IMG/VR virus record: IMGVR_UViG_3300025361_000001
Reading direction: 5' to 3' (one strand)
From: a virus
Length of the DNA: 29,802 nucleotides
Both the position numbers and the translations under genes were made by a program. This document shows, piece after piece, positions 2,235 to 27,384 of this stretch (within the stretch, counting starts at the first letter, position 1; every line of letters begins with the position of its first letter). Below the pieces are notes generated by a model. The model had not been told where the DNA came from, did not search any database, and saw only the letters and a program-made list of their open reading frames with translations.

Positions 2235-3416
2235 TCACAGGAGACCGAAATACCACGCCGCGCCGAGACCGACCGCGCCCGTCCCGGCCGCCGCGGCTGC
2301 TTTGGTTCCGGTCGAGAGTCCACCACCGCCGGATGCGCCCGAGGGAGCGCCCCCAGATCCGCCACCCACAGACCCACCCGAGGAGGCGGGCGGCAGGACT
2401 CCGCCGCGGTTCGAGTTGCCGGGGCCGCGCGGCGGCGAGTCAAGACCGGGCGAGGTGTCGGGGCCGCGCGGCGGCGAGTCAAGACCGGGCGAGGTGTCGG
2501 GGCCGCGCGGCGGCGAGTCAAGACCGGACGAGGTGTCGGCTTGGCCGCGGTAGATGTAGTTGTTCGTGACATCCCGCGAGCCATCTCCATTGTTGCCCGA
2601 AGGGTCTTCGTCACCCTTCGTGTTCTCGCCGCCGCCGCTCTGGTTTTCGGATGCGCCAGTCAGCATCGCGGTGGTTTCGCCGATCTTTTCGTTTGGCACC
2701 CCTTTGCTGTTGCCTTGATCGTCTTGGAGTTGGACGATGCTGTCTGCGTTCAGGTTGATCGCAGTGTTGCCGCCGAACTCCTGTGCGGCGTCGTCGAGTT
2801 CGTCCACCGCATCGCCAGTGATGATGTTACGCTGAGGTTGCATATCCTCGACAGTGATCGGGTCGCCGTCCCCATCAGTCCGCCGCCGTGGATACTCGTT
2901 GTCATCGTCGGTGTCGTTGCCCGCACCCGACGGATCGGGGGAAGTCGACGACCCGACGTTGGGGCTGGTGTCGGGCGACGGGTCGTACCCCGACTCCCAA
3001 TACTTCGTGTTGTCAGAAGACGGGGAAGACGAAGACTCGTCTGTCGTGTTGTTCCCCGACGGGTCGGGAGAGTCGTCCGAATCTGTCGATCCGGAATCGG
3101 TGTCACTGGTCGTGGTGTAACCACCATACGACCCGTGGCGTTCCGATCCCCCGCCACCACCAGAGTCGTTGCCCGCACCCGACGGGTCCGGGTCGCTCGA
3201 TCCAGACGACCCGCTGTCCGACGAGCCGCTGCTGCTGGTTCGACTGGCGATGGAGCCGCCCGACGACCCGCCATCATCATCGTCCGATCCTGACGAGCCG
3301 CTGCTGCTGGTTCGACTGGCGATGGAGCCGCCCGACGACCCGCCATCATCATCGTCCGATCCTGACGAGCCGCCCCAGCCCGAAAACGTGCTTCCAATTT
3401 GTCCTAAGATTCCCAT
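2235..3416 (-). CDS. 393-aa Gly/Ser/Asp-rich, repeat-containing, C-terminally anchored putative virion protein
   Basis: Low-complexity acidic ORF with 24-aa x2 and 13-aa x3 repeats, recurring DPSG motifs and a hydrophobic C-terminus (AAAAAGTGAVGLGAAWYFGLL); own TATA-like box at 3448-3456. Confidence 0.75.
   Translation of the reverse strand: MGILGQIGSTFSGWGGSSGSDDDDGGSSGGSIASRTSSSGSSGSDDDDGGSSGGSIASRTSSSGSSDSGSSGSSDPDPSGAGNDSGGGGGSERHGSYGGYTTTSDTDSGSTDSDDSPDPSGNNTTDESSSSPSSDNTKYWESGYDPSPDTSPNVGSSTSPDPSGAGNDTDDDNEYPRRRTDGDGDPITVEDMQPQRNIITGDAVDELDDAAQEFGGNTAINLNADSIVQLQDDQGNSKGVPNEKIGETTAMLTGASENQSGGGENTKGDEDPSGNNGDGSRDVTNNYIYRGQADTSSGLDSPPRGPDTSPGLDSPPRGPDTSPGLDSPPRGPGNSNRGGVLPPASSGGSVGGGSGGAPSGASGGGGLSTGTKAAAAAGTGAVGLGAAWYFGLL
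2421..2537. repeat. 39-bp tandem repeat x3 (DTS[P/S]GLDSPPRGP)
   Basis: GGGGCCGCGCGGCGGCGAGTCAAGACCGGGCGAGGTGTC at 2421, 2460 and 2499 (last copy has one substitution). Confidence 0.95.
3220..3372. repeat. 72-bp perfect tandem repeat x2 plus a partial third unit
   Basis: GACGAGCCG recurs at 3220, 3292 and 3364; the two full units are identical and encode SSGSSGSDDDDGGSSGGSIASRTS. Confidence 0.95.
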
Positions 3417-3897: not shown

Positions 3898-4380
3898 TTA
3901 CCCCAACAGTGCCTCAAGCGAGTCTTCGTTGACGATGCGCGAGGCAATCGGGCGGGCGACGAAGTAGATGGCGAGCGAGGCGACGCCCGCCGAGGCGAGC
4001 AGTTGGATCGTGCCCATCTGCGCGAGCAGTTCGGCCAGCGACAGCCCGTCGGGGTTGTCGTCGCCGTTCGACCGGCGGAAATCCTGTTCGGCCTGTTCCT
4101 TCATCGCCATCATCTCGTCGCGCGTGATCTCGCCCTGATCGTACATCAACTCGATCTCCGAGAGCCGTTTCTGATAGGCCGTGTAGCGCTCGGTTTGAGC
4201 ATCGGCTTTGGCCGCGTCGGTGTACTGGCCGTAGCTGTAGGCTCCGGCTCCGCCGACGGCCGCGATACTCAGCGGCGAGGTGCCCTTTTTGACGCCCGTC
4301 GAGATGGTGTTGGAAGCCCCCGTGGCGAAGTCGTCGCCGACACTGCGTAGGCTGGAGACGGCCGCCTTGAGTGCCCCCAT
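3898..4380 (-). CDS. 160-aa putative virion membrane protein (two hydrophobic segments)
   Basis: LSIAAVGGAGAYSYG and LLASAGVASLAIYFVA flanking a helical charged region; within the capsid operon. Confidence 0.7.
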   Translation of the reverse strand: MGALKAAVSSLRSVGDDFATGASNTISTGVKKGTSPLSIAAVGGAGAYSYGQYTDAAKADAQTERYTAYQKRLSEIELMYDQGEITRDEMMAMKEQAEQDFRRSNGDDNPDGLSLAELLAQMGTIQLLASAGVASLAIYFVARPIASRIVNEDSLEALLG

Positions 4381-4382
4381 CG

Positions 4383-4619
4383 CTACAACACCATCCGGAC
4401 GCCGAGGCTGATTGCGGCACTCCCGGCGAGATCAGTCCCGTCGAAGGTGTCGCCGTTGCCGTTGTTGACGGTTATGTCCCAGAGCAAGGCGACGACCGCC
4501 CACGTCGCCGCGGTCCGGCCCATCCACGTGAACGCGTTGCGCCACGCGAACTCGGTGACTCGCGGGAAGATGTAGGCCGACGCCAGCGAGCCGACGACGG
4601 CGCTCAGTGCGACACCCAT
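4383..4619 (-). CDS. 78-aa putative virion membrane protein
   Basis: Mostly hydrophobic with 2-3 TM-like segments; start abuts the stop of the upstream gene. Confidence 0.7.
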   Translation of the reverse strand: MGVALSAVVGSLASAYIFPRVTEFAWRNAFTWMGRTAATWAVVALLWDITVNNGNGDTFDGTDLAGSAAISLGVRMVL

Positions 4620-4925
4620 CTACATCACCCCCCGACGGACGATGCCGGTGACGAGGAACGCGACGATGCCGATGCCGACGCCTTTGCCCCCACGCCACCA
4701 GACGCTCTGGTCCGACTCGTCAGTGACCAGCGTGTAGAGAACGGCCGTCGACGGGATGATAAGCACCCCGTCGAGGATCGTGCCGACACGCTCGCGGACG
4801 AACTTGTCGAGCGCCTCCGGTGTGCTGCGGTTGGTTGCGAACGGTGAGGTGACGACGCGTGCCGCCCCCGAGACCGTATTGATTGATTCCTGTGCCGCCG
4901 TGTTGACGTGCTTGAGTGCAGTCAT
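4620..4925 (-). CDS. 101-aa putative virion membrane protein
   Basis: True start is probably ATG 4925 (MTALKHV), an ATGA overlap with the 497-aa gene; two hydrophobic segments near the C-terminus. Confidence 0.7.
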   Translation of the reverse strand: MTALKHVNTAAQESINTVSGAARVVTSPFATNRSTPEALDKFVRERVGTILDGVLIIPSTAVLYTLVTDESDQSVWWRGGKGVGIGIVAFLVTGIVRRGVM

Positions 4926-10249: not shown

Positions 10250-10761
10250 GCGAGAGCAACCCCGAACAGACCGGAGACCAGCCCGAGGGCGACCTCGAAC
10301 CAGACCCAACCGCCGACGCCGAGGAAGTCGAAGCCGCCATCGAGGCCGAAGGTCTCGACGTGCCAGACGGAGACGGGGACGGTGGCGGACTGTTGGAAGT
10401 CCTCAACAGCGGCGGCATCAAACAACTCCTGCTGCAAAAGACGTTTCAGGACCCCCAGAGCAGCCACGAGTATTCGCAGGCCGATCTCGTCGCCGACGTG
10501 GTCAACGTCATGCGGATGGATGCCAAGCAGATGTGTGCGCTTCACGACATCAAAGTCGAAGTCGACAAGATGTCGCCCGAACGGTCGGCCGAACTGCTCG
10601 AAGATGTCGCCAAGAACGAGGGTGTCGGCATTATTGACGTGTTCCAGCAGATCGAGGAGAAACGCGACAAAGTGTTCCGCCAGAAGATGACCGACGAGCA
10701 GTACGACCAGTATATCCGGTTCAAGGAGTCGATGCTCTACTCGGTCGGAGGCAGCCAATGA
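10246..10761 (+). CDS. 171-aa acidic helical hypothetical protein
   Basis: Coupled by ATGA overlaps on both sides; halophilic composition. Confidence 0.7.
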   Translation: MSESNPEQTGDQPEGDLEPDPTADAEEVEAAIEAEGLDVPDGDGDGGGLLEVLNSGGIKQLLLQKTFQDPQSSHEYSQADLVADVVNVMRMDAKQMCALHDIKVEVDKMSPERSAELLEDVAKNEGVGIIDVFQQIEEKRDKVFRQKMTDEQYDQYIRFKESMLYSVGGSQ

Positions 10762-10913
10762 GCGAGATTGGCTTCGACGGCGTCGAACTCGGGACCGACG
10801 ACTCGGTGGGCTGTTCGGACTGCAACGTGCCGCTTTCGGATCACGACAAGGAACGCGACTACAGCGGCAAGGGTCCGGCAGGGTCGTACTCCTACAACTA
10901 CATCTGCCCCTAA
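10758..10913 (+). CDS. 51-aa Cys-containing microprotein
   Basis: MSEIGFDGVELGTDDSVGCSDCNVPLSDHDKERDYSGKGPAGSYSYNYICP; ATGA overlap upstream, stop 1 nt before the ATPase ATG; below the ORF-track cutoff. Confidence 0.7.
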   Translation: MSEIGFDGVELGTDDSVGCSDCNVPLSDHDKERDYSGKGPAGSYSYNYICP

Positions 10914-10914
10914 G

Positions 10915-11868
10915 ATGGCCCGGACAGCCATCCTCGGGCGTTCAGGCATGGGGAAATCGTGGTTCGGCGGGAAGGTCCTCGAAGATGTCCTGACCAACGG
11001 CGATGGCTCCGGGCGTGCGGGTCGCTGTGGGTGTGGGACCGACGACTGCGATCACGAGGCGGGCGACGACGACTACATCCCGACCGTCGAAACCGGAGAG
11101 GGAGCGCCCGACTTCGATATTGACGAGGACTTCGAGTATGCGATCCACGTCGACCTTGAAGACGAGGAAAAGGGGTTCTCGGACCCGGTCGATCTGATTC
11201 TCCTGACGTACTCGGCGACGCCCGACAACATCAAGAAGTTCGTCAAATTCGAGGGCGAGGTGCCATCGTACATTCCCGAAGACGAACTCAAGGACGGCGA
11301 CGAGATCCTCCTGCCGAAGTGGGTGTTCTACAAGTACAAGTACATCCGCGTGGTGCCCGACGGGCTGACCGACGAGGAGTCGAAGATCCTCGTCGAGATG
11401 CTGGCCGACGCGGCGATGAAGGCCGGGGACACCCACTTCTCGCTGGACGAAGCCCACCTGATCGCCAGCAAACACGGCATCGGCGACAAACTGATGCGGC
11501 TGGTGACTGGTGGCCGAAAGCGAGGCGTCGAGTGGTTGTTCATGACCCAGCGCCCGCAGAAACTCCACGAGGACATCCTCTCGCAGACCGACTACACCGT
11601 GTATTTCAACCTGCGAGGCCGGGACCGTGACAAGGCCGCCGAAAAGGCCGAGTCGATTCCCAACGCCGAGGACAAGATCGACGCGCTCGAACCACGGGCC
11701 GCGATCATCGAGGACTTCGACCGCGGCGAGTACGAGGAGTTCTCGACCGAAGACCTCGAACGGTCTATCGAACACGTCAGCGGTGACGACGGCAAGGCCG
11801 ACTCGGCCTACGAGTCGCTGATGGGGATTGGCAGCGACGAAGAAGACAGCGACGACACCGACGATTAG
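10915..11868 (+). CDS. Genome-packaging ATPase (A32-like, FtsK-HerA superfamily), 317 aa
   Basis: True start MARTAILGRSGMGKSW (Walker A); Walker B FSLDEAH; Arg motif GGRKRG; MTQRPQ; also IRVVPDGLT and HVSGDDG, resembling recalled SH1 ORF17. Confidence 0.92.
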   Translation: MARTAILGRSGMGKSWFGGKVLEDVLTNGDGSGRAGRCGCGTDDCDHEAGDDDYIPTVETGEGAPDFDIDEDFEYAIHVDLEDEEKGFSDPVDLILLTYSATPDNIKKFVKFEGEVPSYIPEDELKDGDEILLPKWVFYKYKYIRVVPDGLTDEESKILVEMLADAAMKAGDTHFSLDEAHLIASKHGIGDKLMRLVTGGRKRGVEWLFMTQRPQKLHEDILSQTDYTVYFNLRGRDRDKAAEKAESIPNAEDKIDALEPRAAIIEDFDRGEYEEFSTEDLERSIEHVSGDDGKADSAYESLMGIGSDEEDSDDTDD

Positions 11869-16664: not shown

Positions 16665-17441
16665 TCAGAACCTCGCCAGCCACTCGAACAGATCGTCGAG
16701 TGGGTCGAGCGGTGGGTCGTAGAGTTCGAGCGGTTCAGTGGTGATCTCGTCTGGGCTTACGCCGCCATCGCCAGCCTTCCGCATCAGTTGGCGACGCCAG
16801 CTACGCAGTACGTCGTTGTGGGCGGTCGACTCGCTCTGCCGCCAGACGTTCTGTTGGTGGGTGACGCGGTCGCCGTCGGCGTCCTCGAAGGTGATCTCTA
16901 CGCGGTAGAGCGTGTACTTGAGCGCCTCGTCCCAGAGCTTCTTGCGTTCGTCGATGGTGGCGTCCCAGCCGTCGATGCGCGAGAGCATCTGCTGGAGGTG
17001 GATCAGTTCCGCGTATTCCTCGTGGCCGATCCCAATCGAGCCTTCGATGTAGTTGATCTCGGCTTTGATCGCCTCGCGCCGAGTGCCACGCGGGAGTTGC
17101 TCGATGAAGCGTTCGAGCGCGCCAGCCCGCGTCGTGCCGCTGCGCTCGGTCGCCTGACTGAGGCGTTGGCTCGTCAGCGAGAGGACCGCCCGTTCGAGTT
17201 GCCAGCCCCACTCCTCGCTGGCGACGACGTTTCGGAGCGTGTCTTTCGAGACAGGCTGCTCGTAAGAGAGCGCGTTTTCGAGCGTGTCGCGCGCACTCCC
17301 CTCGGGTAGCGCCTCGAAGATTTCGCCGCCACGAGTGGTGAGGCGGAGGGCGATGTCCTGTGTGCCGAACTTCTGGATGAGGTAGTCGAGGATCTCTACT
17401 CTGCGGACTTCTGCGTCTGGTGTGTCGGTGGTTTCAGTCAT
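16665..17441 (-). CDS. 258-aa hypothetical protein
   Basis: Acidic helical ORF with ATGA overlap to the upstream zinc-finger gene. Confidence 0.7.
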   Translation of the reverse strand: MTETTDTPDAEVRRVEILDYLIQKFGTQDIALRLTTRGGEIFEALPEGSARDTLENALSYEQPVSKDTLRNVVASEEWGWQLERAVLSLTSQRLSQATERSGTTRAGALERFIEQLPRGTRREAIKAEINYIEGSIGIGHEEYAELIHLQQMLSRIDGWDATIDERKKLWDEALKYTLYRVEITFEDADGDRVTHQQNVWRQSESTAHNDVLRSWRRQLMRKAGDGGVSPDEITTEPLELYDPPLDPLDDLFEWLARF

Positions 17442-19153: not shown

Positions 19154-19182
19154 TGTGTCGGTGGTTTTGTGCCGGAATTTCA

Positions 19183-19201
19183 GTGTCCTGTTTCATGGCC
19201 T
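19183..19201 (-). promoter_or_regulatory. 19-bp cassette motif AGGCCATGAAAYAGGACAY, copy 1
   Basis: Plus-strand GTGTCCTGTTTCATGGCCT; 29 nt upstream of ATG 19153. Confidence 0.7.
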
Positions 19202-19225
19202 GTGGCCCGGCTCCCTGAACGTGCA

Positions 19226-19258
19226 AACGCCCTACCCGATCATATCAGGTAGAGCGTT
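19226..19258 (-). terminator. 15-bp stem-loop downstream of the duplicated gene (second copy at 20247-20279)
   Basis: Minus strand AACGCTCTACCTGAT-ATG-ATCGGGTAGGGCGTT; both mismatches are G-U on this strand; starts 9 nt after the stop codon. Confidence 0.6.
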
Positions 19259-19266
19259 ATAATTGC

Positions 19267-20115
19267 TTACTGGTCGAACTTAGTTGACAGATTCTCGCGG
19301 GTCTGGGCGATCCGGTTGTCGGTCGGCTGCGGGATCGGCGCGCCGGAGGCCGCCTTCCGGATGCTCTCGACACGGTTGGTGTAGGCGTCGAACGCCTCGA
19401 AGACCGAGTCCTGTGTCGGGAGACGGGCGGCGACGAACAGGTCACTCATCGTGATGTGGACGCGTTCGATCTGGTCCCACGACGACCGCACCTGTTTGGG
19501 CACGTTGACCGACGGGGCGAGGTCGTCCAGCGAGCCGCCAGCCAGTTCGCGGAGTTGGTCGATGCCGGTGCGGAACTTCGAGCGCGGCATGTGGTCGACG
19601 ATCTTGACTTCCGGGTGGAAGTAGAGCGCGAGTGCCATGTCGGCCTCGTCGCTCGGCATCAGGCTCTCGAAGGCCACGAAGCGCTCGTCGTCCTCGAAGA
19701 CCTGCACGGCGATCTCGCCGTAGAACTCCATCAACATCGCCAGTTCGGAGACGCCGCAGTGACAGTTGGCGGCGAACTCCATGTAGTCCGCGAACTCCGG
19801 GGCGACCGAGAACGTCGAGCGGGTGTCGTGTTTCTTGTCGCCGTGGCCGTGCGAGAGGCCACAGACCGGACACTCGAAGTCGCGGACCGAGGCTGACTCG
19901 ACCTGTTCGGCGGCGCGGCCGAGGACCTCCGCCATCGTGTTGTCGATACCCTCGTTTCTCTCGGCGTCGGATCGGAGTTGGTTGGCGTCGACCGTCGGTC
20001 GAGCGTAGTGGTCGCCGAGCTTCCACTTGCGAACGTCGTAGGTTTCTGCGTCTGCGTCTGCGTTGTTGGTTGCTGCGTTGGTGCCGCTGAACATCGCGTT
20101 GTCGTAGTTCGTCAT
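19267..20115 (-). CDS. 282-aa Cys/His-motif protein, duplicate copy
   Basis: Identical to 20288-21136; the 44-aa N-terminal extension in the ORF track (start 20247) only reads through the duplication junction. Confidence 0.75.
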   Translation of the reverse strand: MTNYDNAMFSGTNAATNNADADAETYDVRKWKLGDHYARPTVDANQLRSDAERNEGIDNTMAEVLGRAAEQVESASVRDFECPVCGLSHGHGDKKHDTRSTFSVAPEFADYMEFAANCHCGVSELAMLMEFYGEIAVQVFEDDERFVAFESLMPSDEADMALALYFHPEVKIVDHMPRSKFRTGIDQLRELAGGSLDDLAPSVNVPKQVRSSWDQIERVHITMSDLFVAARLPTQDSVFEAFDAYTNRVESIRKAASGAPIPQPTDNRIAQTRENLSTKFDQ

Positions 20116-20203
20116 TCTAGTTAGGTTCGGGTGAGCGGATGACCGTCCGTTCGCGGAAGTTGGTCGGGAGATGCTGTGTCGGTGGTTTTGTGCCGGAATT
20201 TCA

Positions 20204-20222
20204 GTGTCCTGTTTCATGGCCT
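20204..20222 (-). promoter_or_regulatory. 19-bp cassette motif, copy 2 (carried in the duplication)
   Basis: Identical to 19183-19201 at offset 1021. Confidence 0.65.
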
Positions 20223-20287
20223 GTGGCCCGGCTCCCTGAACGTGCAAACGCCCTACCCGATCATATCAGGTAGAGCGTTATAATTGC

Positions 20288-21136
20288 TTACTGGTCGAAC
20301 TTAGTTGACAGATTCTCGCGGGTCTGGGCGATCCGGTTGTCGGTCGGCTGCGGGATCGGCGCGCCGGAGGCCGCCTTCCGGATGCTCTCGACACGGTTGG
20401 TGTAGGCGTCGAACGCCTCGAAGACCGAGTCCTGTGTCGGGAGACGGGCGGCGACGAACAGGTCACTCATCGTGATGTGGACGCGTTCGATCTGGTCCCA
20501 CGACGACCGCACCTGTTTGGGCACGTTGACCGACGGGGCGAGGTCGTCCAGCGAGCCGCCAGCCAGTTCGCGGAGTTGGTCGATGCCGGTGCGGAACTTC
20601 GAGCGCGGCATGTGGTCGACGATCTTGACTTCCGGGTGGAAGTAGAGCGCGAGTGCCATGTCGGCCTCGTCGCTCGGCATCAGGCTCTCGAAGGCCACGA
20701 AGCGCTCGTCGTCCTCGAAGACCTGCACGGCGATCTCGCCGTAGAACTCCATCAACATCGCCAGTTCGGAGACGCCGCAGTGACAGTTGGCGGCGAACTC
20801 CATGTAGTCCGCGAACTCCGGGGCGACCGAGAACGTCGAGCGGGTGTCGTGTTTCTTGTCGCCGTGGCCGTGCGAGAGGCCACAGACCGGACACTCGAAG
20901 TCGCGGACCGAGGCTGACTCGACCTGTTCGGCGGCGCGGCCGAGGACCTCCGCCATCGTGTTGTCGATACCCTCGTTTCTCTCGGCGTCGGATCGGAGTT
21001 GGTTGGCGTCGACCGTCGGTCGAGCGTAGTGGTCGCCGAGCTTCCACTTGCGAACGTCGTAGGTTTCTGCGTCTGCGTCTGCGTTGTTGGTTGCTGCGTT
21101 GGTGCCGCTGAACATCGCGTTGTCGTAGTTCGTCAT
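20288..21136 (-). CDS. 282-aa putative metal-binding protein
   Basis: CPVCGLSHGHGDKKH and CHCG motifs; acidic; no family recognised. Confidence 0.8.
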   Translation of the reverse strand: MTNYDNAMFSGTNAATNNADADAETYDVRKWKLGDHYARPTVDANQLRSDAERNEGIDNTMAEVLGRAAEQVESASVRDFECPVCGLSHGHGDKKHDTRSTFSVAPEFADYMEFAANCHCGVSELAMLMEFYGEIAVQVFEDDERFVAFESLMPSDEADMALALYFHPEVKIVDHMPRSKFRTGIDQLRELAGGSLDDLAPSVNVPKQVRSSWDQIERVHITMSDLFVAARLPTQDSVFEAFDAYTNRVESIRKAASGAPIPQPTDNRIAQTRENLSTKFDQ

Positions 21137-21236
21137 TCTAGTTAGGTTCGGGTGAGCGGATGACCGTCCGTTCGCGGAAGTTGGTCGGGAGATGCTGTGT
21201 CGGTGGTCGACTGGTGAGTTGTTTTGGCTATCACCA

Positions 21237-21280
21237 TACCGCCGCGCGGACTCGAACCGCGCGTCAGTACCTACGGCGGC
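21237..21280 (-). ncRNA. 44-nt mini-tRNA / t-element (acceptor stem plus T-arm; no D or anticodon arm)
   Basis: Minus strand GCCGCCG-TAGGTACTGACG-CGCGG-TTCGAGT-CCGCG-CGGCGGT-A: 7-bp acceptor stem (G1-U72), U8-A9-G10, perfect 5-bp T-stem with TTCGAGT loop, discriminator A; intergenic. Confidence 0.75.
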
Positions 21281-21306
21281 GACGGGTCGGCGGAGGTGTG
21301 CCTACC

Positions 21307-22011
21307 TCAGAGATCCTCCGGTGTGTAGGTGACCGCCCACAGCGCTCGGGTGACGAACTCGACCATATCGTCAGTGGTGCCGAGGCCGGTGAAGCCGTCG
21401 AGTTCGAGTTGACCCTCGCCTTCCGGGCGGCGTTGGAACCGCACCTCGTAGGCCGGTTTGTTCGCCGAGTCGTCGAGGACCGTCCCGTCTCGCTTGGCGC
21501 GATCCGTGTTCGGATGGTAGAACTGGTTGTCGTAGGTCAGCAGGACGTGGTCGTGGATCAGCCAGCCGTCGCTCTGAACGTCCACGTCGTCGAACACGTC
21601 GAGCGCAGTCAGTTGGTCGACCGCCCGCGGGTTGACCGCGTAGTCGAGGATCTCGGCGGCCAGCGCGACCAGCGGCTGTGGGTCCGGCGGGTTGGTCTCG
21701 TAGGTCACCAGCAACGCATCGAGCAGGTCGCTCTTGTCGTGTTCGGCCACCGTGACGTACTCGGTCCAGTCGGCGTCGAGGCGGTCGAGGTTGATACCGT
21801 AGACCTCGCGGTCGCCCTCCATGTCCGGTGAGATCGTGACCGCGTACTCGTCGTTGGTCAGTTGGACGTGTTCGTCACGGTCGACGAGCAGCCCAGACAG
21901 CCCGTGTTTGTAGGCGAGCTTGTTGTAGTCCGACCACGGGATGAGTTCAGTCTCGCCGTCGTCTTGCAGGACCAGCGCGTGCGTCTTGCGGTTGTCGAGG
22001 ACTCTGCCCAT
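21307..22011 (-). CDS. 234-aa hypothetical protein coupled to the GHKL ATPase gene
   Basis: TGATG overlap with the 1046-aa gene; acidic. Confidence 0.75.
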   Translation of the reverse strand: MGRVLDNRKTHALVLQDDGETELIPWSDYNKLAYKHGLSGLLVDRDEHVQLTNDEYAVTISPDMEGDREVYGINLDRLDADWTEYVTVAEHDKSDLLDALLVTYETNPPDPQPLVALAAEILDYAVNPRAVDQLTALDVFDDVDVQSDGWLIHDHVLLTYDNQFYHPNTDRAKRDGTVLDDSANKPAYEVRFQRRPEGEGQLELDGFTGLGTTDDMVEFVTRALWAVTYTPEDL

Positions 22012-25000
22012 CAGTCATCACCTCCGTCATCGGGGCAGGTCGTCGACAGCATTACGATGGCCTGCCGAAGGTTCTCGGTGTCGGTGGGGTCGATGCCGAG
22101 ATCGCGGCAGGCCATGAGAAGTTCCTTTTCGTAGTCTTTCGGGCCGTTGTAGCCCGTCTCGATCCGACCCCAGATGTCGGAGTCGTTGTCCCACTGCGGG
22201 TACTGCGTTCGCTTGAAGATCCGGTCGAGGTCACGGACCGGGGAGCGGCGGATCTCGGCCGTCTTTTCCGGGAGCGACGAGTCGTAGTTCCAGTAGTGGA
22301 CCTTGATGACGCCCGAGCTGCGCGACAACGATTCTGGCCGGTCGTAGAACATATGGATGTACGTCTTGATCCGGTCGCGCTTGACCGTCCACTGTGTGTC
22401 CCACTCGACGGCGCGCCACGTGTCGAGGTCGTCCGGCACGTCCTCGGCATCCATCTCGCGGAAGTTCGGGATGCCCGAGATGCCGTTGATGAACTCGTCG
22501 AGCGTGCGCTGGCGGATCTCGGCGTACATCTCGTGGGACGGCGATACGTCTTCGATCTGCTTGCCGCGGATGGCCGCCCAGAGCGCATCCGATTCCTTGT
22601 GGACGAACACGTGCGAGTCGCGGTCGTCGAGGATCGTCTCGATAGTCGAGTCGAAGCCCGCCTGCGAGAACGGGTCGTAGACCGGGAGCTTCGTGCTGGT
22701 GATCATCTCCTCGAACTCGTCGAGGTAGTAGACGTTGTCGTAGGCGTGGAGTGCCTCGGCCTCCATCTTGATGCACTTGATGATCGCCGCGTGTTCGGAC
22801 AGGTCGTAGTGGTCCGAAATGTTCTCCTCGCGGGTCGACGAGAACAGGACGATGTCGTGCTGGCCGAGGTCCGTTCCGTTGACACCGATGGAGACATCAT
22901 CTGAGTCCTCCATGTCGTTCAGCCCCTCCATCAGATCGCCGACGGTGAACTTGTAGTCGATAGAGGCGTTCGGTTTGCAGCGGATGTCGACCGGGCGCTC
23001 TTGGAAGTTGTCCGGATCGGTGAGGTCGATCTCGACCTCGTCGCCGTCCTCGTTCGTCGTCGTGGTTTTCGTCGAGGCGTTGCTCCGCTTGCGCTTGTCG
23101 TGGATGTGCTGGGGCACCGTCCAGTCGTCGTCGAGACTGGTGTCGTCGTGCGTCATCGGCGTGTCCTTGACGAGCGCGGCGACGAGAACTCCCTGCCAGT
23201 TCGAGTAGTTGCGCGTCTTGATGAGCGCCGCGTTCGGGTAGTTCTCATTGTGCCAGATGACCTTCGCTCGGTCGCGGTTGATCGTCGTGCCGACGAACAG
23301 CGGCCAGCGGCCCTCTTTGGCGAGTAGCGTGCCGAGACAGACCGAGTTGCGGCGGTTGTCCTTCTTGTTGGGATCGCCGCGCATGTCGCTGGTTGCCACG
23401 TCGACCGTGTTCTCCATGCGAGCGAGCAGGCACAGGTTCTCCCACTGTGGGTGAGCGCGGTCGTCTCGCTCCGTCTCGCCCGACGTGTTCTCCTTCATAG
23501 GATCGGAGATGGACGGCTCGCCGGGGTCGACAGTCGGCGCGTCGTCCAGATCGAAGTCGATGTCCGGGCGACTGGTACACCAGCGGGCGAGGGGCTTGCG
23601 GTTGGGGAGCGTGTGGCTGCTGGCGTGTTTCTTGAGCAGCTTGCGATACAACTCGTGTTGGGTGCCCGATTCGCGGATGAACGCCAGCGCGTCGTCGGGC
23701 GTGTCGGCCGTCAAGACACCGTTGAGGTGGTCCGAGACCGTCGAGAGTTCTTCCTCACGGGCGATGTGGTCGAGGTACTCGAAGAAGCGCTTGTGGGCCT
23801 CGTCCTGTTTGAAGTTGTCACGCGAGGCGACCGGCACCGGCAGCGGCACGTCGGGCATCGGCTTGGACTGATCGGCGATGTCGTCGATCTCGCCTGCGAG
23901 TTCGTCGATCTGCGAGGCGAGGTAGCCACGGTTCGGCCCGGCGGCGATCAGCCCCTGCTCGTTGTGGATCTGGAGGTGATCGTTCCAGAGCGTGTCGATG
24001 GACTGCAGGTAGGACAGGTTTCTGTCGATTGGATTGTCGAGGAGGTAGGTGTCGTTGGTCATACTCGACTTCGAGACGATGTCCGGCGTGTCGAGGACGA
24101 GCGTGAACTCGCCCGGCCGGTCGATCACGATGGCCGGTTCCTCGTCGTACTGATCGAGGAACGTCGTCCGGTCGAACTCCTCCTCGTTTTTCGAGCCGCT
24201 TTTGACATCCTGCCACGACACCTGCGTCGGGAGGATGTCGGTGTAGCGCTCCATGTCAGACATGAACGTCTCGGTGTTGGCGCTGTCTTGGACCGGGATG
24301 GTGAACTCGGTGCCGAAGAAGCCGTCGTCGATCTGCGACGGGATGGGGATCATCCCGCCGAAGTACGAGTAGAACGTGTAGCCGTCCCGGTCGCGCTGGG
24401 GGACGACCTCGCCCGACTGCGACTCCTCGCGGCGAGTCCGGGTTTTGACCTTCATCGCGCCCTCCTCGCCCGCGATGGAGACCCACGTCAGCGAGCCGAT
24501 CCCTTTGTTGCCCGCCGACGAAAGGTCGACGCCCGACCCCGACGCGGCCGGTTCGTTCCAGAGTTCGATGGCCTCGCCGGTCGTCATGGCGATACCGTTG
24601 TCGCGGGTCGTCAGCGAGCCGTTGTCGTGGTCGACGGTGAACTCGATGCTCGGCGCGTAGCCGAGGTCTCTCGCCATGTCGATGATCTCGGCGGCCTTTT
24701 TGGGCAGTCTGATCGTCCGCTCGCCGTCGATCTCGGGGTGGGAGTGGTCGACCTCGTGGTAGAGCGCGCTCTCGCCGTAGGCGAGGGTAACCAGCCGCTT
24801 GGCCTCGCGGGTGATCGCGGCGACGTGGTTCTGGAGCCACTCGCGGAAGAAGACGCCCGTATCCTCGTAGAGACCGTCGGCGAGGATCTGCTGGACTTGG
24901 ACGGGCGTGTCGCTGATGAGCGCCTCTTTCGAGCCTGCGGTGACGACCAGCGGGTGATCGTCGTCGGCCACCGAGAAGTCGCGGTGGAGGCGGTCGGGCA

Positions 25001-25151
25001 GCGCGTGTTTCATCCGCTCGGCGGGCGAGTCGTACTCCGAGTCGGCGTCGTCGTCGACGGTCTCCGGGGTGACGACTTCGGCGGCTTCGACAGCGGTGGT
25101 TTCGGCGTTGTTCTCGGATTCGTCGTCTGCGTCTGTGGTTGGTTTAGACAT
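22011..25151 (-). CDS. 1046-aa protein with N-terminal GHKL ATPase domain (Hsp90/HtpG- or phage rIIA-like)
   Basis: Bergerat-fold motifs in order: LYEDTGVFFREWLQN (N-box), TRDNGIAMT (G1), GNKGIGS (G2), GTEFTIPV (G3); long unrecognised C-terminal region. Confidence 0.8.
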   Translation of the reverse strand: MSKPTTDADDESENNAETTAVEAAEVVTPETVDDDADSEYDSPAERMKHALPDRLHRDFSVADDDHPLVVTAGSKEALISDTPVQVQQILADGLYEDTGVFFREWLQNHVAAITREAKRLVTLAYGESALYHEVDHSHPEIDGERTIRLPKKAAEIIDMARDLGYAPSIEFTVDHDNGSLTTRDNGIAMTTGEAIELWNEPAASGSGVDLSSAGNKGIGSLTWVSIAGEEGAMKVKTRTRREESQSGEVVPQRDRDGYTFYSYFGGMIPIPSQIDDGFFGTEFTIPVQDSANTETFMSDMERYTDILPTQVSWQDVKSGSKNEEEFDRTTFLDQYDEEPAIVIDRPGEFTLVLDTPDIVSKSSMTNDTYLLDNPIDRNLSYLQSIDTLWNDHLQIHNEQGLIAAGPNRGYLASQIDELAGEIDDIADQSKPMPDVPLPVPVASRDNFKQDEAHKRFFEYLDHIAREEELSTVSDHLNGVLTADTPDDALAFIRESGTQHELYRKLLKKHASSHTLPNRKPLARWCTSRPDIDFDLDDAPTVDPGEPSISDPMKENTSGETERDDRAHPQWENLCLLARMENTVDVATSDMRGDPNKKDNRRNSVCLGTLLAKEGRWPLFVGTTINRDRAKVIWHNENYPNAALIKTRNYSNWQGVLVAALVKDTPMTHDDTSLDDDWTVPQHIHDKRKRSNASTKTTTTNEDGDEVEIDLTDPDNFQERPVDIRCKPNASIDYKFTVGDLMEGLNDMEDSDDVSIGVNGTDLGQHDIVLFSSTREENISDHYDLSEHAAIIKCIKMEAEALHAYDNVYYLDEFEEMITSTKLPVYDPFSQAGFDSTIETILDDRDSHVFVHKESDALWAAIRGKQIEDVSPSHEMYAEIRQRTLDEFINGISGIPNFREMDAEDVPDDLDTWRAVEWDTQWTVKRDRIKTYIHMFYDRPESLSRSSGVIKVHYWNYDSSLPEKTAEIRRSPVRDLDRIFKRTQYPQWDNDSDIWGRIETGYNGPKDYEKELLMACRDLGIDPTDTENLRQAIVMLSTTCPDDGGDD

Positions 25152-25978: not shown

Positions 25979-26498
25979 TGAGAATGTCGTGTGCCATCGA
26001 GCCTTCTGGCGGGTTCGGGTCGGCCGTCGAGGTTGTTTGCTCGGTGATGTAGTCCATCACCGATGTCTGTTCTGAGTCCGGCACCGAGAGGAACTTCGTG
26101 ACCGGCGCGACCGACCACTTCATCACGCAGTAGACCGCGTAGATCGCAGTCAGCGCGACGACGACGCCGATGGCGTTGGCGATCCGTTCGTCGAGATTGC
26201 CGCGCTGGGTGAGTTGGGCAACGATGCGGTTGGTCGCCGCGCTGATCGCACCCGTGACGATGCTCGACAGGCCGTAGTAGATCCCGAAGACGACCACCAG
26301 CACGGCGAGCGTCTTGGCGAGTGTGTAGGCCTGTTTGGCCGCCCGAACCACGTAGTGCGTGGTGTAGGCTCCGAAGACCGCCAGCGTCAGCGTGAACATC
26401 CCGGCAGCCAGCCGCAGCAGCGTCGTGTCTTTGCCGTCCGTGTCGACCCTTTCGAGCGCCGTTTCGAGCGTCTTGCGCGGTTCGTCCGGTTGGATCAT
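25968..26498 (-). CDS. 176-aa membrane protein (about three TM segments)
   Basis: Start MIQPDE at 26498 by ATGA overlap; three hydrophobic stretches. Confidence 0.7.
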   Translation of the reverse strand: MIQPDEPRKTLETALERVDTDGKDTTLLRLAAGMFTLTLAVFGAYTTHYVVRAAKQAYTLAKTLAVLVVVFGIYYGLSSIVTGAISAATNRIVAQLTQRGNLDERIANAIGVVVALTAIYAVYCVMKWSVAPVTKFLSVPDSEQTSVMDYITEQTTSTADPNPPEGSMAHDILNGD

Positions 26499-27097
26499 GG
26501 CCGACCACCCAGCATCTCGGCCTCCCACTCGCGGCGGTTTTCGATGGCATCGCGTCCCGCGTCGGTGAGATCGTAGTAGTTGGTGCGCTGGTCGCGGTCG
26601 CCCCAGTCACGACCGGCGCGGGCGGGCGGCAACCACTCGTAGTAGTTGGTGCGCTGGTCGCGGTCGCCCTTCTCGACCAGCCCGCTGTCGACGAGCGAGT
26701 CGAGGTTGGAGTAGAGCCGCCCGTTGTTGACCTTGGCGATGGTGGTGTCGTTTTCGAGCCGTCGGCGGATCTCTTGGCCCGATGGTTTGTCCGACCCCAT
26801 GATGACGTAGAGGAGGTCGCGCTGGAAGCCCGTCAGACCGAACATGGTAGACATCAGATCCCCCTTGCTCACGTTTGGGTTGTACTGCTCGGCGCGAGCG
26901 TGCAGGCTGCGGCGCGACTGATCGAACGTCCAGAAGTCGTCGGGGTTGATGTTCATGTCGAGGCGGTCCGTCTCGGTGTCGTCGTCGGTGTCGGTAGTTG
27001 GTTCTGTCATATCGAACTCGAAGATGGTTGCTTGATCGTCCGGGTCGTCGCCGATCTCGCGGAGGCGCTGCTGGTCGGGAGTGTAGTCGGCAGTCAT
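26495..27097 (-). CDS. PadR-family winged-helix regulator with acidic N-terminal extension and a 22-aa in-frame insertion
   Basis: LTGFQRDLLYVI...GRLYSNLDSLVDSGLVEKG..DQRTNYY.LT..GR..IE.RREWE is the typical haloarchaeal PadR pattern; start MTADY at 27097 by ATGA overlap. Confidence 0.85.
   Translation of the reverse strand: MTADYTPDQQRLREIGDDPDDQATIFEFDMTEPTTDTDDDTETDRLDMNINPDDFWTFDQSRRSLHARAEQYNPNVSKGDLMSTMFGLTGFQRDLLYVIMGSDKPSGQEIRRRLENDTTIAKVNNGRLYSNLDSLVDSGLVEKGDRDQRTNYYEWLPPARAGRDWGDRDQRTNYYDLTDAGRDAIENRREWEAEMLGGRP
26571..26669. repeat. 33-bp perfect direct repeat flanking a 33-bp unique insert
   Basis: TCGTAGTAGTTGGTGCGCTGGTCGCGGTCGCCC at 26571-26603 and 26637-26669. Confidence 0.95.
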
Positions 27098-27384
27098 CTC
27101 CACGACTCCCCGCGGCTCAGGCCCGTGTTGAGGACATCGACCTGTCGGCCGTACTCGGTCAGCATCGCCTTGTTGTGGCTGTCGTCGGCAACAACGAGAC
27201 CTTCGCTGGCCCATGTTGCGACGATCTGTCGGCTGCGCTGTTCGTGTAGCGTCGTGTTGTTCTGGGCGACCTGCGTGACCGAAACGTAATCTTCGTCGCT
27301 GGACTCTACGTAGCTGTTGAAGCGTGCCCAGAGGTGTTGTTCATCGTCTGATACCTGTCTGTTAGGTTCGTGTGTCGTTGTCAT
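27094..27384 (-). CDS. 96-aa putative winged-HTH protein, first gene of a cassette
   Basis: VSVTQVAQ...RSRQIVATWASEGLV....AMLTEYG resembles a MarR-type wHTH with wing; ACCACCGACA leader and 19-bp motif 29 nt upstream. Confidence 0.6.
   Translation of the reverse strand: MTTTHEPNRQVSDDEQHLWARFNSYVESSDEDYVSVTQVAQNNTTLHEQRSRQIVATWASEGLVVADDSHNKAMLTEYGRQVDVLNTGLSRGESWR

Follow-up and report, generated by a model that had tools for sequence, protein, structure and literature searches.

What is a truncated transfer RNA (tRNA) doing between two protein genes of a viral operon? The question is raised by the 29,802-nt virus sequence IMGVR_UViG_3300025361_000001 from IMG/VR (the whole of this stretch is called the window below), in which a preliminary description had pointed out a mini-tRNA lacking D and anticodon arms on the minus strand, at 21237..21280. 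The element is 44 nt long, and the sequence that had been quoted for it, including the 7-bp acceptor-like stem and the T arm, is exact to the base. Read in the sense direction, it consists of a 7-nt 5′ acceptor strand (21274..21280, the partner of 21238-21244); a 12-nt linker in place of the D and anticodon arms (21262..21273, beginning with TAGG and so containing GG); a T arm (21245..21261), whose 5-bp stem (21261-21257 with 21249-21245) and 7-nt loop TTCGAGT (21256-21250) match the motif GGTTCRANYCC; and the 3′ acceptor strand (21238-21244) followed by a trailing, discriminator-like A at 21237 (together 21237..21244), with no CCA encoded. Six of the seven acceptor pairs are Watson-Crick, and the outermost is G.U. 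The element begins 26 nt past the stop codon of an open reading frame (ORF) of 234 aa, and from its end to the ATG of a 282-aa ORF (at 21136) there are 100 nt; the placement first described is thus borne out by the ORF coordinates. It is confirmed, then, that the element is a tRNA top-half mimic on the sense strand, within an operon.

Tests on the single sequence say little more. ARAGORN, one of the checks proposed in the preliminary description, called no tRNA gene in the window, and Rfam gave no tRNA match for the element at E-values up to 10. Its best Rfam match is mascRNA-menRNA (RF01684), at 25.1 bits (E 0.014), which does not reach the gathering score of 42.5; at gathering threshold, Rfam 15 matched only one true tRNA and a hammerhead ribozyme of the virus HF2 (see below) in the window and eight related loci. 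The proposed folding check gave a divided answer: the minimum-free-energy fold is not tRNA-like, and its energy is close to that of shuffled sequences (z-score -0.86), whereas the centroid fold does show the acceptor and T arms. A canonical tRNA gene was rejected on the ARAGORN result, the lack of an Rfam tRNA match, and the mere 12 nt between acceptor and T stems. Since neither ARAGORN, nor the folding z-score, nor Rfam separates the element from background, comparison is needed to show that it is more than chance.

Conservation and covariation in homologous genomes, on which the preliminary description had staked the element, are both clearly present. Searching viral contigs with the single 234-aa protein gave nothing, and homologues were found from an alignment of it; the metagenomic ones are 33-58% identical to the window protein. 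Directly downstream of the 234-aa homologue, the fold is found in the loci that we label L003, L005, L006, L008, L015, L016, and L019, and the syntenic copies that follow such homologues comprise at least eight sequence types. It is missing from this junction in two distant loci, L007 and L014; in L007, a 22.7-bit copy lies one gene further along. In HSTV-2 and HRTV-11, whose 234-aa homologues (gp91 in HSTV-2) are only ~37% identical to the window protein, the same fold with a different sequence stands at the start of the gap after the gp91 homologue: compared with the window, two acceptor positions have changed together with their partners, the T stem has one compensatory change, and the G.U outer pair is kept.

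The element is a member of a family of covarying structures that lie on the gene strand, in intergenic positions, and are spread across virus families. A covariance model made from the syntenic copies (R1) gives the window element 44.2 bits, and a second model with a consistent register (R2) gives it 41.5 bits; R2 was used instead of R1, whose training alignment had a blurred 3′ register, and whose alignment A3 took in false matches (58% pairing in helix 1). No second copy was found by covariance model in the whole window with filters off (the next-best match has 15.8 bits). In the 7.7-kb HSTV-2 locus, R1 revealed three more copies, each in an intergenic gap, and the whole HSTV-2 genome has six non-tRNA matches, all on the minus strand, where they fall within or border on gaps of the operon at 52-64 kb; a seventh match is the T arm of its real tRNA-Gln. 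R2 further found copies in genomes on which it had not been trained: SH1 (34.6 bits, ORF54/ORF53 gap), HCIV-1 (35 bits, ORF46/ORF45 gap), and HF2 (30.7 and 29.3 bits, in the gaps between HrrHF2_005 and 010 and between 030 and 035). HRTV-7 has nine matches to R2 in all, its tRNA and weak ones included, and HSTV-2 and HRTV-7 each have five to six copies that had no part in the training.

A pattern scan of IMG/VR for the SH1/HF2 subtype yielded further carriers, among them L055 (IMGVR_UViG_2974794068_000001, an uncultured viral contig of 56.6 kb), which has five copies on one strand, between 3431 and 10744. Four of the five begin at or directly past a stop codon; a second hairpin comes after each of them, and a shared motif, CGAACTAC, then precedes the next ATG in four cases (the flanking stop and start codons of L055 were read from the sequence). 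One L055 copy is extended by ARAGORN to an 89-nt "tRNA-Ala". Other matches of the scan, including those in L040 and L045, are true tRNAs and were rejected as family copies.

No match of 29 bits or more was found in PH1, HHIV-2, HVTV-1, and HGTV-1 (~305 kb in total, with 36 true tRNA genes in HGTV-1), and a 26-bit match in HSTV-1 was discarded, as it is inside a gene; we therefore regard ~29 bits as a clean threshold. That PH1 has no copy fits the published replacement of the SH1 ORF51-55 region in that virus (PMC3622292). The copies of at least 29 bits for which annotation or flanks were read are all on the gene strand, and are clearly intergenic except for L005 3118-3163 and HSTV-2 63985. The latter (63985-64033, minus strand, 30.9 bits) lies within the first 20 annotated codons of gp101; an ATG follows the element and its hairpin, and the start of gp101 has probably been drawn too far upstream. 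Elsewhere in HSTV-2, at ~54317-54412 (minus strand; L001 7003-7098), an unannotated 31-aa ORF with CxxC...CC motifs, zinc-ribbon-like, ends inside a mini-tRNA linker. The mini-tRNA copies are unannotated in the SH1, HCIV-1, HF2, and HSTV-2 records, and we found no description of such elements in papers on HF2, the HF1 group, PH1/SH1, and archaeal tailed viruses.

The structure was quantified in an alignment of 25 distinct copies of at least 28.9 bits (A7), which was aligned by the model and includes 14 copies not used for training. Standard pairs fill 94.9% of its cells, versus 43-53% in slid controls (in which the partner is shifted by 1-3 columns); changes on both sides are seen in 10 of the 11 pairs; and the covariation score is 0.678, versus 0.06-0.16 in the slid controls, with 0 of 500 shuffles reaching the observed values. 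In 11 hand-registered copies (A4), 96.6% of the cells are paired, versus 40-58% in slid controls. RNAalifold on its own predicts both helices, recovering the inner five acceptor pairs. Among the 25 copies of A7, the T stem is paired in all cells, with compensatory changes in four of its five pairs and an invariant loop-closing G-C; a sixth T-stem pair is possible in 17 copies. The T loop is TTCGACT (16 copies), TTCGAGT (6), or TTCACGA (3), so that TTC-R-A-N-Y fits 22 of the 25. The linker is 9-18 nt long and has GG in 24 copies. Family members have a total length of 40-49 nt and a combined helix of 10-13 bp; none encodes CCA, and the acceptor sequence and trailing base differ freely between copies. 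The U8-A9-G10 that had been called invariant holds in part: the nucleotides after the stem are TAGG in the window, HSTV-2, and L007, but AGYGGCGGC in the SH1/HF2 subtype. Three copies (L006 5866-5880, HSTV-2 61209-61256, and HSTV-2 63985-64033) have a mini-hairpin in the linker, with stems GAGG/CCTC, GCGG/CCGC, and GGG/CCC and a loop starting with TAAT, which may be a vestigial third arm.

This pattern bears on whether the element is simply the functionless remnant of a viral tRNA gene that is decaying after an internal deletion. The idea has some appeal, since the window element equals a Thermoplasmatota tRNA-Asn over its first 10 and its last 23 paired nt, and internal 28-nt deletions are reported in viral tRNA genes of Serpecor1 and HRTV-8 (PMC7230728). 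However, compensatory changes have preserved both helices among viruses in which the flanking proteins share 33-58% identity, and the element recurs in five to six gaps of one genome. As the maintained covariation excludes neutral decay, we consider a functionless remnant very improbable. The window element does look like an archaeal tRNA in which positions 11-48 have been replaced, which may point to the origin of the family.

The same data speak to the level at which the element acts. In the inner ten pairs of the 25 copies there are 244 Watson-Crick cells, three G.U, no A.C, and one A.A; the occurrence of G.U without A.C, together with the strict strand bias, indicates that RNA rather than DNA is what acts. 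A DNA-level site, either a tRNA fragment of the phage attachment (attP) type or a recombination site at cassette edges, would have precedents: viruses of the HF1/HF2 group carry a partial tRNA as attP (PMC8707807, PMC7230728), likewise a tRNA-derived fragment in a haloarchaeal virus genome, and the window element stands at the edge of a seemingly exchanged module, just upstream of a 1021-bp duplication with its ends on a 12-nt repeat (see below). Those attP sequences, however, are a contiguous 3′ part of a host tRNA, present once per genome beside an integrase gene, whereas the viral element has both acceptor strands (as the preliminary description had stressed), lacks a haloarchaeal tRNA match, occurs several times in one genome, and covaries. 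When the 22-nt 3′ half was compared with 185,579 species genomes (representative genomes), four exact matches were found, none of them haloarchaeal; no tRNA has the 5′ strand directly joined to the 3′ part, and yet the two covary; the six copies of HSTV-2 lie 1.5-13 kb from its single XerCD gene, which is on the other strand; no integrase domain was detected in the 19 window ORFs scanned, a subset of the ORFs of the window; and the wobble pairs are G.U on the sense strand only. The simple attP fragment was rejected, given no haloarchaeal match, covarying strands, and several copies away from the integrase; and we hold any DNA-level role to be highly unlikely.

What would such an RNA do between genes? 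The surroundings of the copies show a recurrent layout. In the window, a small hairpin (5-bp stem, 6-nt loop; 21293..21308, minus strand) overlaps the stop codon of the 234-aa gene, 12 nt upstream of the element, and comparable small hairpins precede the element in L003 and SH1; it is possible that this hairpin protects the 3′ end of the upstream mRNA. Only 1 nt past the element is the Shine-Dalgarno (SD)-like GGTGATA (21229..21235, minus strand), with no conserved ORF behind it. The same heptamer comes directly after the element in L003, L005, L015, L016, and L019 (GGTGATG in L006), and GGTGATA matches the SD sequences that precede real ATGs elsewhere in the window (GGAGGTGAT at 22022 and GGGGGTGAT at 4629). 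A copy of the 12-nt leader repeat ACCACCGACACA (21196..21207, minus strand) lies 29 nt downstream of the element; the repeat is further found at 17421, 19154, 20175, 25774, and 29286 of the window, and ACCACCGACAC stands at the corresponding position of the related contig L003. In SH1, HCIV-1, HF2, HSTV-2, and L055, a second hairpin stands 1-5 nt past the element, and it covaries between SH1 and HCIV-1; a lineage-specific motif is then found just before the ATG (GTGACACCG in HF2, GGGACACAACC in HSTV-2, and CGAACTACC in L055). There is no AT-rich promoter box between the 234-aa stop and the element in the window, so the element would be transcribed there only as part of the upstream message. 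Two other ideas about these flanks were rejected: a short ORF from an ATG overlapping the trailing base (the peptides are not conserved, and L003 has no such ATG), and a pairing of the upstream region with the linker (present in L005, absent in L015 and L016).

An acceptor-like stem stacked on a GGTTCRANYCC-type T arm, with the other arms absent, is the structure of a t-element, and it is seen in the window and in the 25 copies; likewise, the intergenic position on the gene strand is found in the window, HSTV-2, SH1, HCIV-1, HF2, and L055. The family keeps the parts read by tRNA-processing enzymes and varies the rest, which argues for a structural processing signal rather than imitation of one tRNA identity. 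The cut made by archaeal RNase Z falls behind the discriminator; the enzyme tolerates loss of the D or anticodon arm, but depends on the acceptor stem and on a 5′ end that is already mature (PMC7479834). From this analysis we infer, with slightly more confidence than doubt, that the element is a t-element-like processing signal for RNase P and tRNase Z, cleavages and purpose included. Host RNase P would cut at the 5′ edge of the element, giving a messenger RNA for the 234-aa protein and for the GHKL protein encoded ahead of it, with a 3′ end just behind the small hairpin; a cut by host tRNase Z behind the trailing base would provide the mRNA of the 282-aa protein with a defined 5′ end at the SD-like motif (in SH1, HF2, and HSTV-2, the new 5′ end would begin at the second hairpin); and a minihelix of 40-49 nt would be freed as a by-product. 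The order of stop codon, small hairpin, mini-tRNA, hairpin or SD-like motif, leader, and ATG would fit cuts on both sides with the resulting ends protected.

Several known systems resemble this arrangement. One is the t-element of Haloferax volcanii, which is likewise haloarchaeal and takes a tRNA-like fold as part of a longer transcript; cleavage of this element, upstream of 5S ribosomal RNA (rRNA), by tRNase Z makes the 5′ end of the 5S rRNA, and t-elements that flank a CRISPR RNA (crRNA) in Haloferax are substrates of RNase P and tRNase Z in vivo (PMC4326828). It differs in being a single host locus in an rRNA operon, whereas the viral elements are virus-borne, often multi-copy, and placed between protein genes. 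The t-elements of plant mitochondria share with the viral element a non-canonical tRNA-like fold and the T-arm motif (GGTTCRANYCC); their edges coincide with mapped 5′ and 3′ ends of mRNAs, and excised t-elements have been detected (PMC1920247). They belong, however, to an organelle in another domain, keep more of the cloverleaf, and have no sequence relationship to the viral element. Mitochondrial tRNA punctuation also places tRNA-shaped units between the coding regions of a polycistronic RNA, with the difference that those units are decoding tRNAs with anticodons, and the viral elements have no anticodon arm. The mitochondrial units act as cut marks, and very reduced (armless) tRNAs are tolerated by the processing enzymes. 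The mammalian mascRNA and MEN-beta RNAs (RF01684), which are cut by RNase P and RNase Z, form the tRNA-like end of a long transcript, but they keep a cloverleaf, so that the likeness is limited to the acceptor and T arms.

A further comparison comes from within the virus group. HF2 has a type II hammerhead ribozyme (HrrHF2_135; L054 10292-10359) that fills a same-strand gap, between a stop codon at 10290 and the next ATG at 10371; it lies 1 nt past the stop, and 11 nt separate it from the ATG of a gene for a Rad3-like helicase. Like the mini-tRNA, it occupies an intergenic gap after a stop codon, and RNA cutting is certain there; unlike it, the hammerhead is self-cleaving and has an unrelated fold. 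A self-cleaving ribozyme in this position means that RNA cutting between genes is already in the repertoire of this virus group.

A number of observations weigh against the processing signal. The window sequence on its own folds no better than its shuffles; helix length varies from 10 to 13 bp, where a tRNA has 12; A58 is absent from the three copies with TTCACGA; and in one weak HSTV-2 copy the loop is 5 nt long. The alignments themselves lean towards pairing (the register of A4 was chosen by hand, which favours it, and A7, being model-aligned, leans to the structure of the model), a bias that is countered by the slid controls, the untrained matches, and the independent RNAalifold result. Hoelzle et al. 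(2012) reportedly saw no cleavage in vitro of other tRNA-like elements that had been predicted computationally in Haloferax. A further objection comes from HF2, in which a 5′ end described as a transcription start site was mapped by primer extension ("TSS T-4384"), downstream of a promoter motif that spans 4343-4356 (PMC8707807). The copy at 4376-4414 includes this position, a G of its linker and not at its edge, and the promoter motif is 19 nt upstream of the element (L036 2044-2149, corresponding to HF2 4343-4448); L051 and L060 have a similar promoter-like motif at the same distance of 19 nt. An RNA begun at 4384 lacks the 5′ acceptor strand; at least this copy would thus double as a leader, and its complete fold could form in read-through RNA alone. 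Primer extension cannot separate a primary start, a processed end, and a reverse-transcriptase stop at 4384. Still, an end inside the copy lowers our confidence in a uniform mechanism of cutting at both edges.

These HF2 data also speak for an alternative in which nothing is cut, the elbow-shaped fold acting, together with the hairpin or SD-like motif and a GACAC-type motif ahead of the ATG, as a leader or intergenic structure in cis that recruits ribosomes or a protein, or stabilises the downstream message. The promoter-started RNA of HF2, if its end is at 4384, carries the T arm as a 5′ leader (PMC8707807). Moreover, what lies within 1-5 nt of the element is nearly always a second hairpin (SH1, HCIV-1, HF2, HSTV-2, and L055) or GGTGATA (the group of the window), and the lineage-specific motif then stands just before the ATG. 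The acceptor strands, however, covary even at this locus: those of HF2 and of L051/L060 differ in a compensatory way, although the promoter-started RNA would lack the 5′ strand, indicating that the complete fold must be of importance in read-through RNA. A freely varying stem under a canonical T loop is, besides, what tRNA-processing enzymes read, and in the window the ATG is 100 nt away. We therefore see an uncut cis-acting structure as unlikely, though it deserves to be kept in view.

Alternatively, the released minihelix could itself be the product, an anticodon-less mimic that receives CCA and sequesters or misdirects host factors, for instance the CCA-adding enzyme, modification enzymes, or tRNA-directed defence nucleases. 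Both the CCA-adding enzyme and T-loop modifiers recognise a tRNA by its top half, and several copies per genome could give a high dose; this role is also compatible with processing. We nevertheless regard it as improbable: no synthetase identity is conserved, since acceptor and trailing base vary even among the copies of a single genome; anticodon nucleases would find no anticodon loop; and the copies are always linked to gene boundaries, lacking a promoter and terminator of their own.

We also looked at the genes around the element. In the window it follows two genes and precedes a third, all on the minus strand: a 1046-aa Hsp90/GHKL-like gene (22011..25151), the first in the module, whose product is 28-31% identical to the "HSP90 chaperone" of HSTV-2, HRTV-2, and HRTV-11; the 234-aa gene (21307..22011; phrog_21685, homologous to HSTV-2 gp91), whose start overlaps the stop of the GHKL gene; and the 282-aa gene (20288..21136; phrog_30610, homologous to HSTV-2 gp90). 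The order of these three genes is kept in members of Mincapvirus, tailed viruses of haloarchaea (HSTV-2, HRTV-2, HRTV-7, HRTV-11, HCTV-6, and HCTV-15), at 28-37% protein identity. The 282-aa gene is the first copy of a 1021-bp tandem duplication, in agreement with the preliminary description, which had called the downstream gene duplicated. The duplication is exact, covers 19154-21195, and spans the entire gene; the ends of its unit fall on the 12-nt repeat ACCACCGACACA (minus strand), and the mini-tRNA precedes the upstream copy only. Tandem repeats are also found in a 393-aa ORF at 2235-3416 (39 nt three times at 2412-2539, and 72 nt twice, exactly, at 3220-3363). The 239-aa ORF at 26495-27214 (minus strand), which carries a PadR-type transcription regulator domain (E 8e-12), may encode an early regulator.

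The window itself is of a different kind from the tailed viruses. Megablast of the window against databases, and tblastn with its 1394-aa ORF, returned no match; the ORF at 10768-11868, however, is 31-33% identical to the packaging ATPase of SH1, HCIV-1, HHIV-2, and PH1. Because of this match we take the window to be a distant SH1-type (sphaerolipovirus-like) virus of salt-lake archaea, as had been assumed from the start, with an early region that contains the module of the tailed viruses. The module together with the mini-tRNA is common to the window (20288-25151) and HSTV-2 (56220-60835), and appears to have been exchanged between virus realms, that is, between SH1-type tailless viruses and tailed Hafunaviridae.

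Taken together, these lines lead us to a proposal to which we give about equal credence and doubt: that the family is a shared, horizontally exchanged "punctuation mark" in two unrelated realms, a viral equivalent of the tRNA punctuation in mitochondria, at which host RNase P and tRNase Z would cut polycistronic mRNAs into end-protected messages, and that the freed minihelices might be mimics. No published SH1 transcript study covering the ORF54/ORF53 gap was found. If the proposal is true, archaeal viruses would have a simple and widespread way of maturing their mRNAs with host tRNA enzymes alone, which would account for the shorter RNAs seen on Northern blots from long halovirus transcripts (HF2 and phiH1; PMC8707807). 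It would also provide very short processing tags for haloarchaeal genetics, for which the Haloferax t-element is already in use (PMC4326828). For the viruses themselves, the family marks a gene module that appears to have moved between two virus realms, and its members are natural acceptor/T-arm minihelices, the minimal substrate of several tRNA enzymes.

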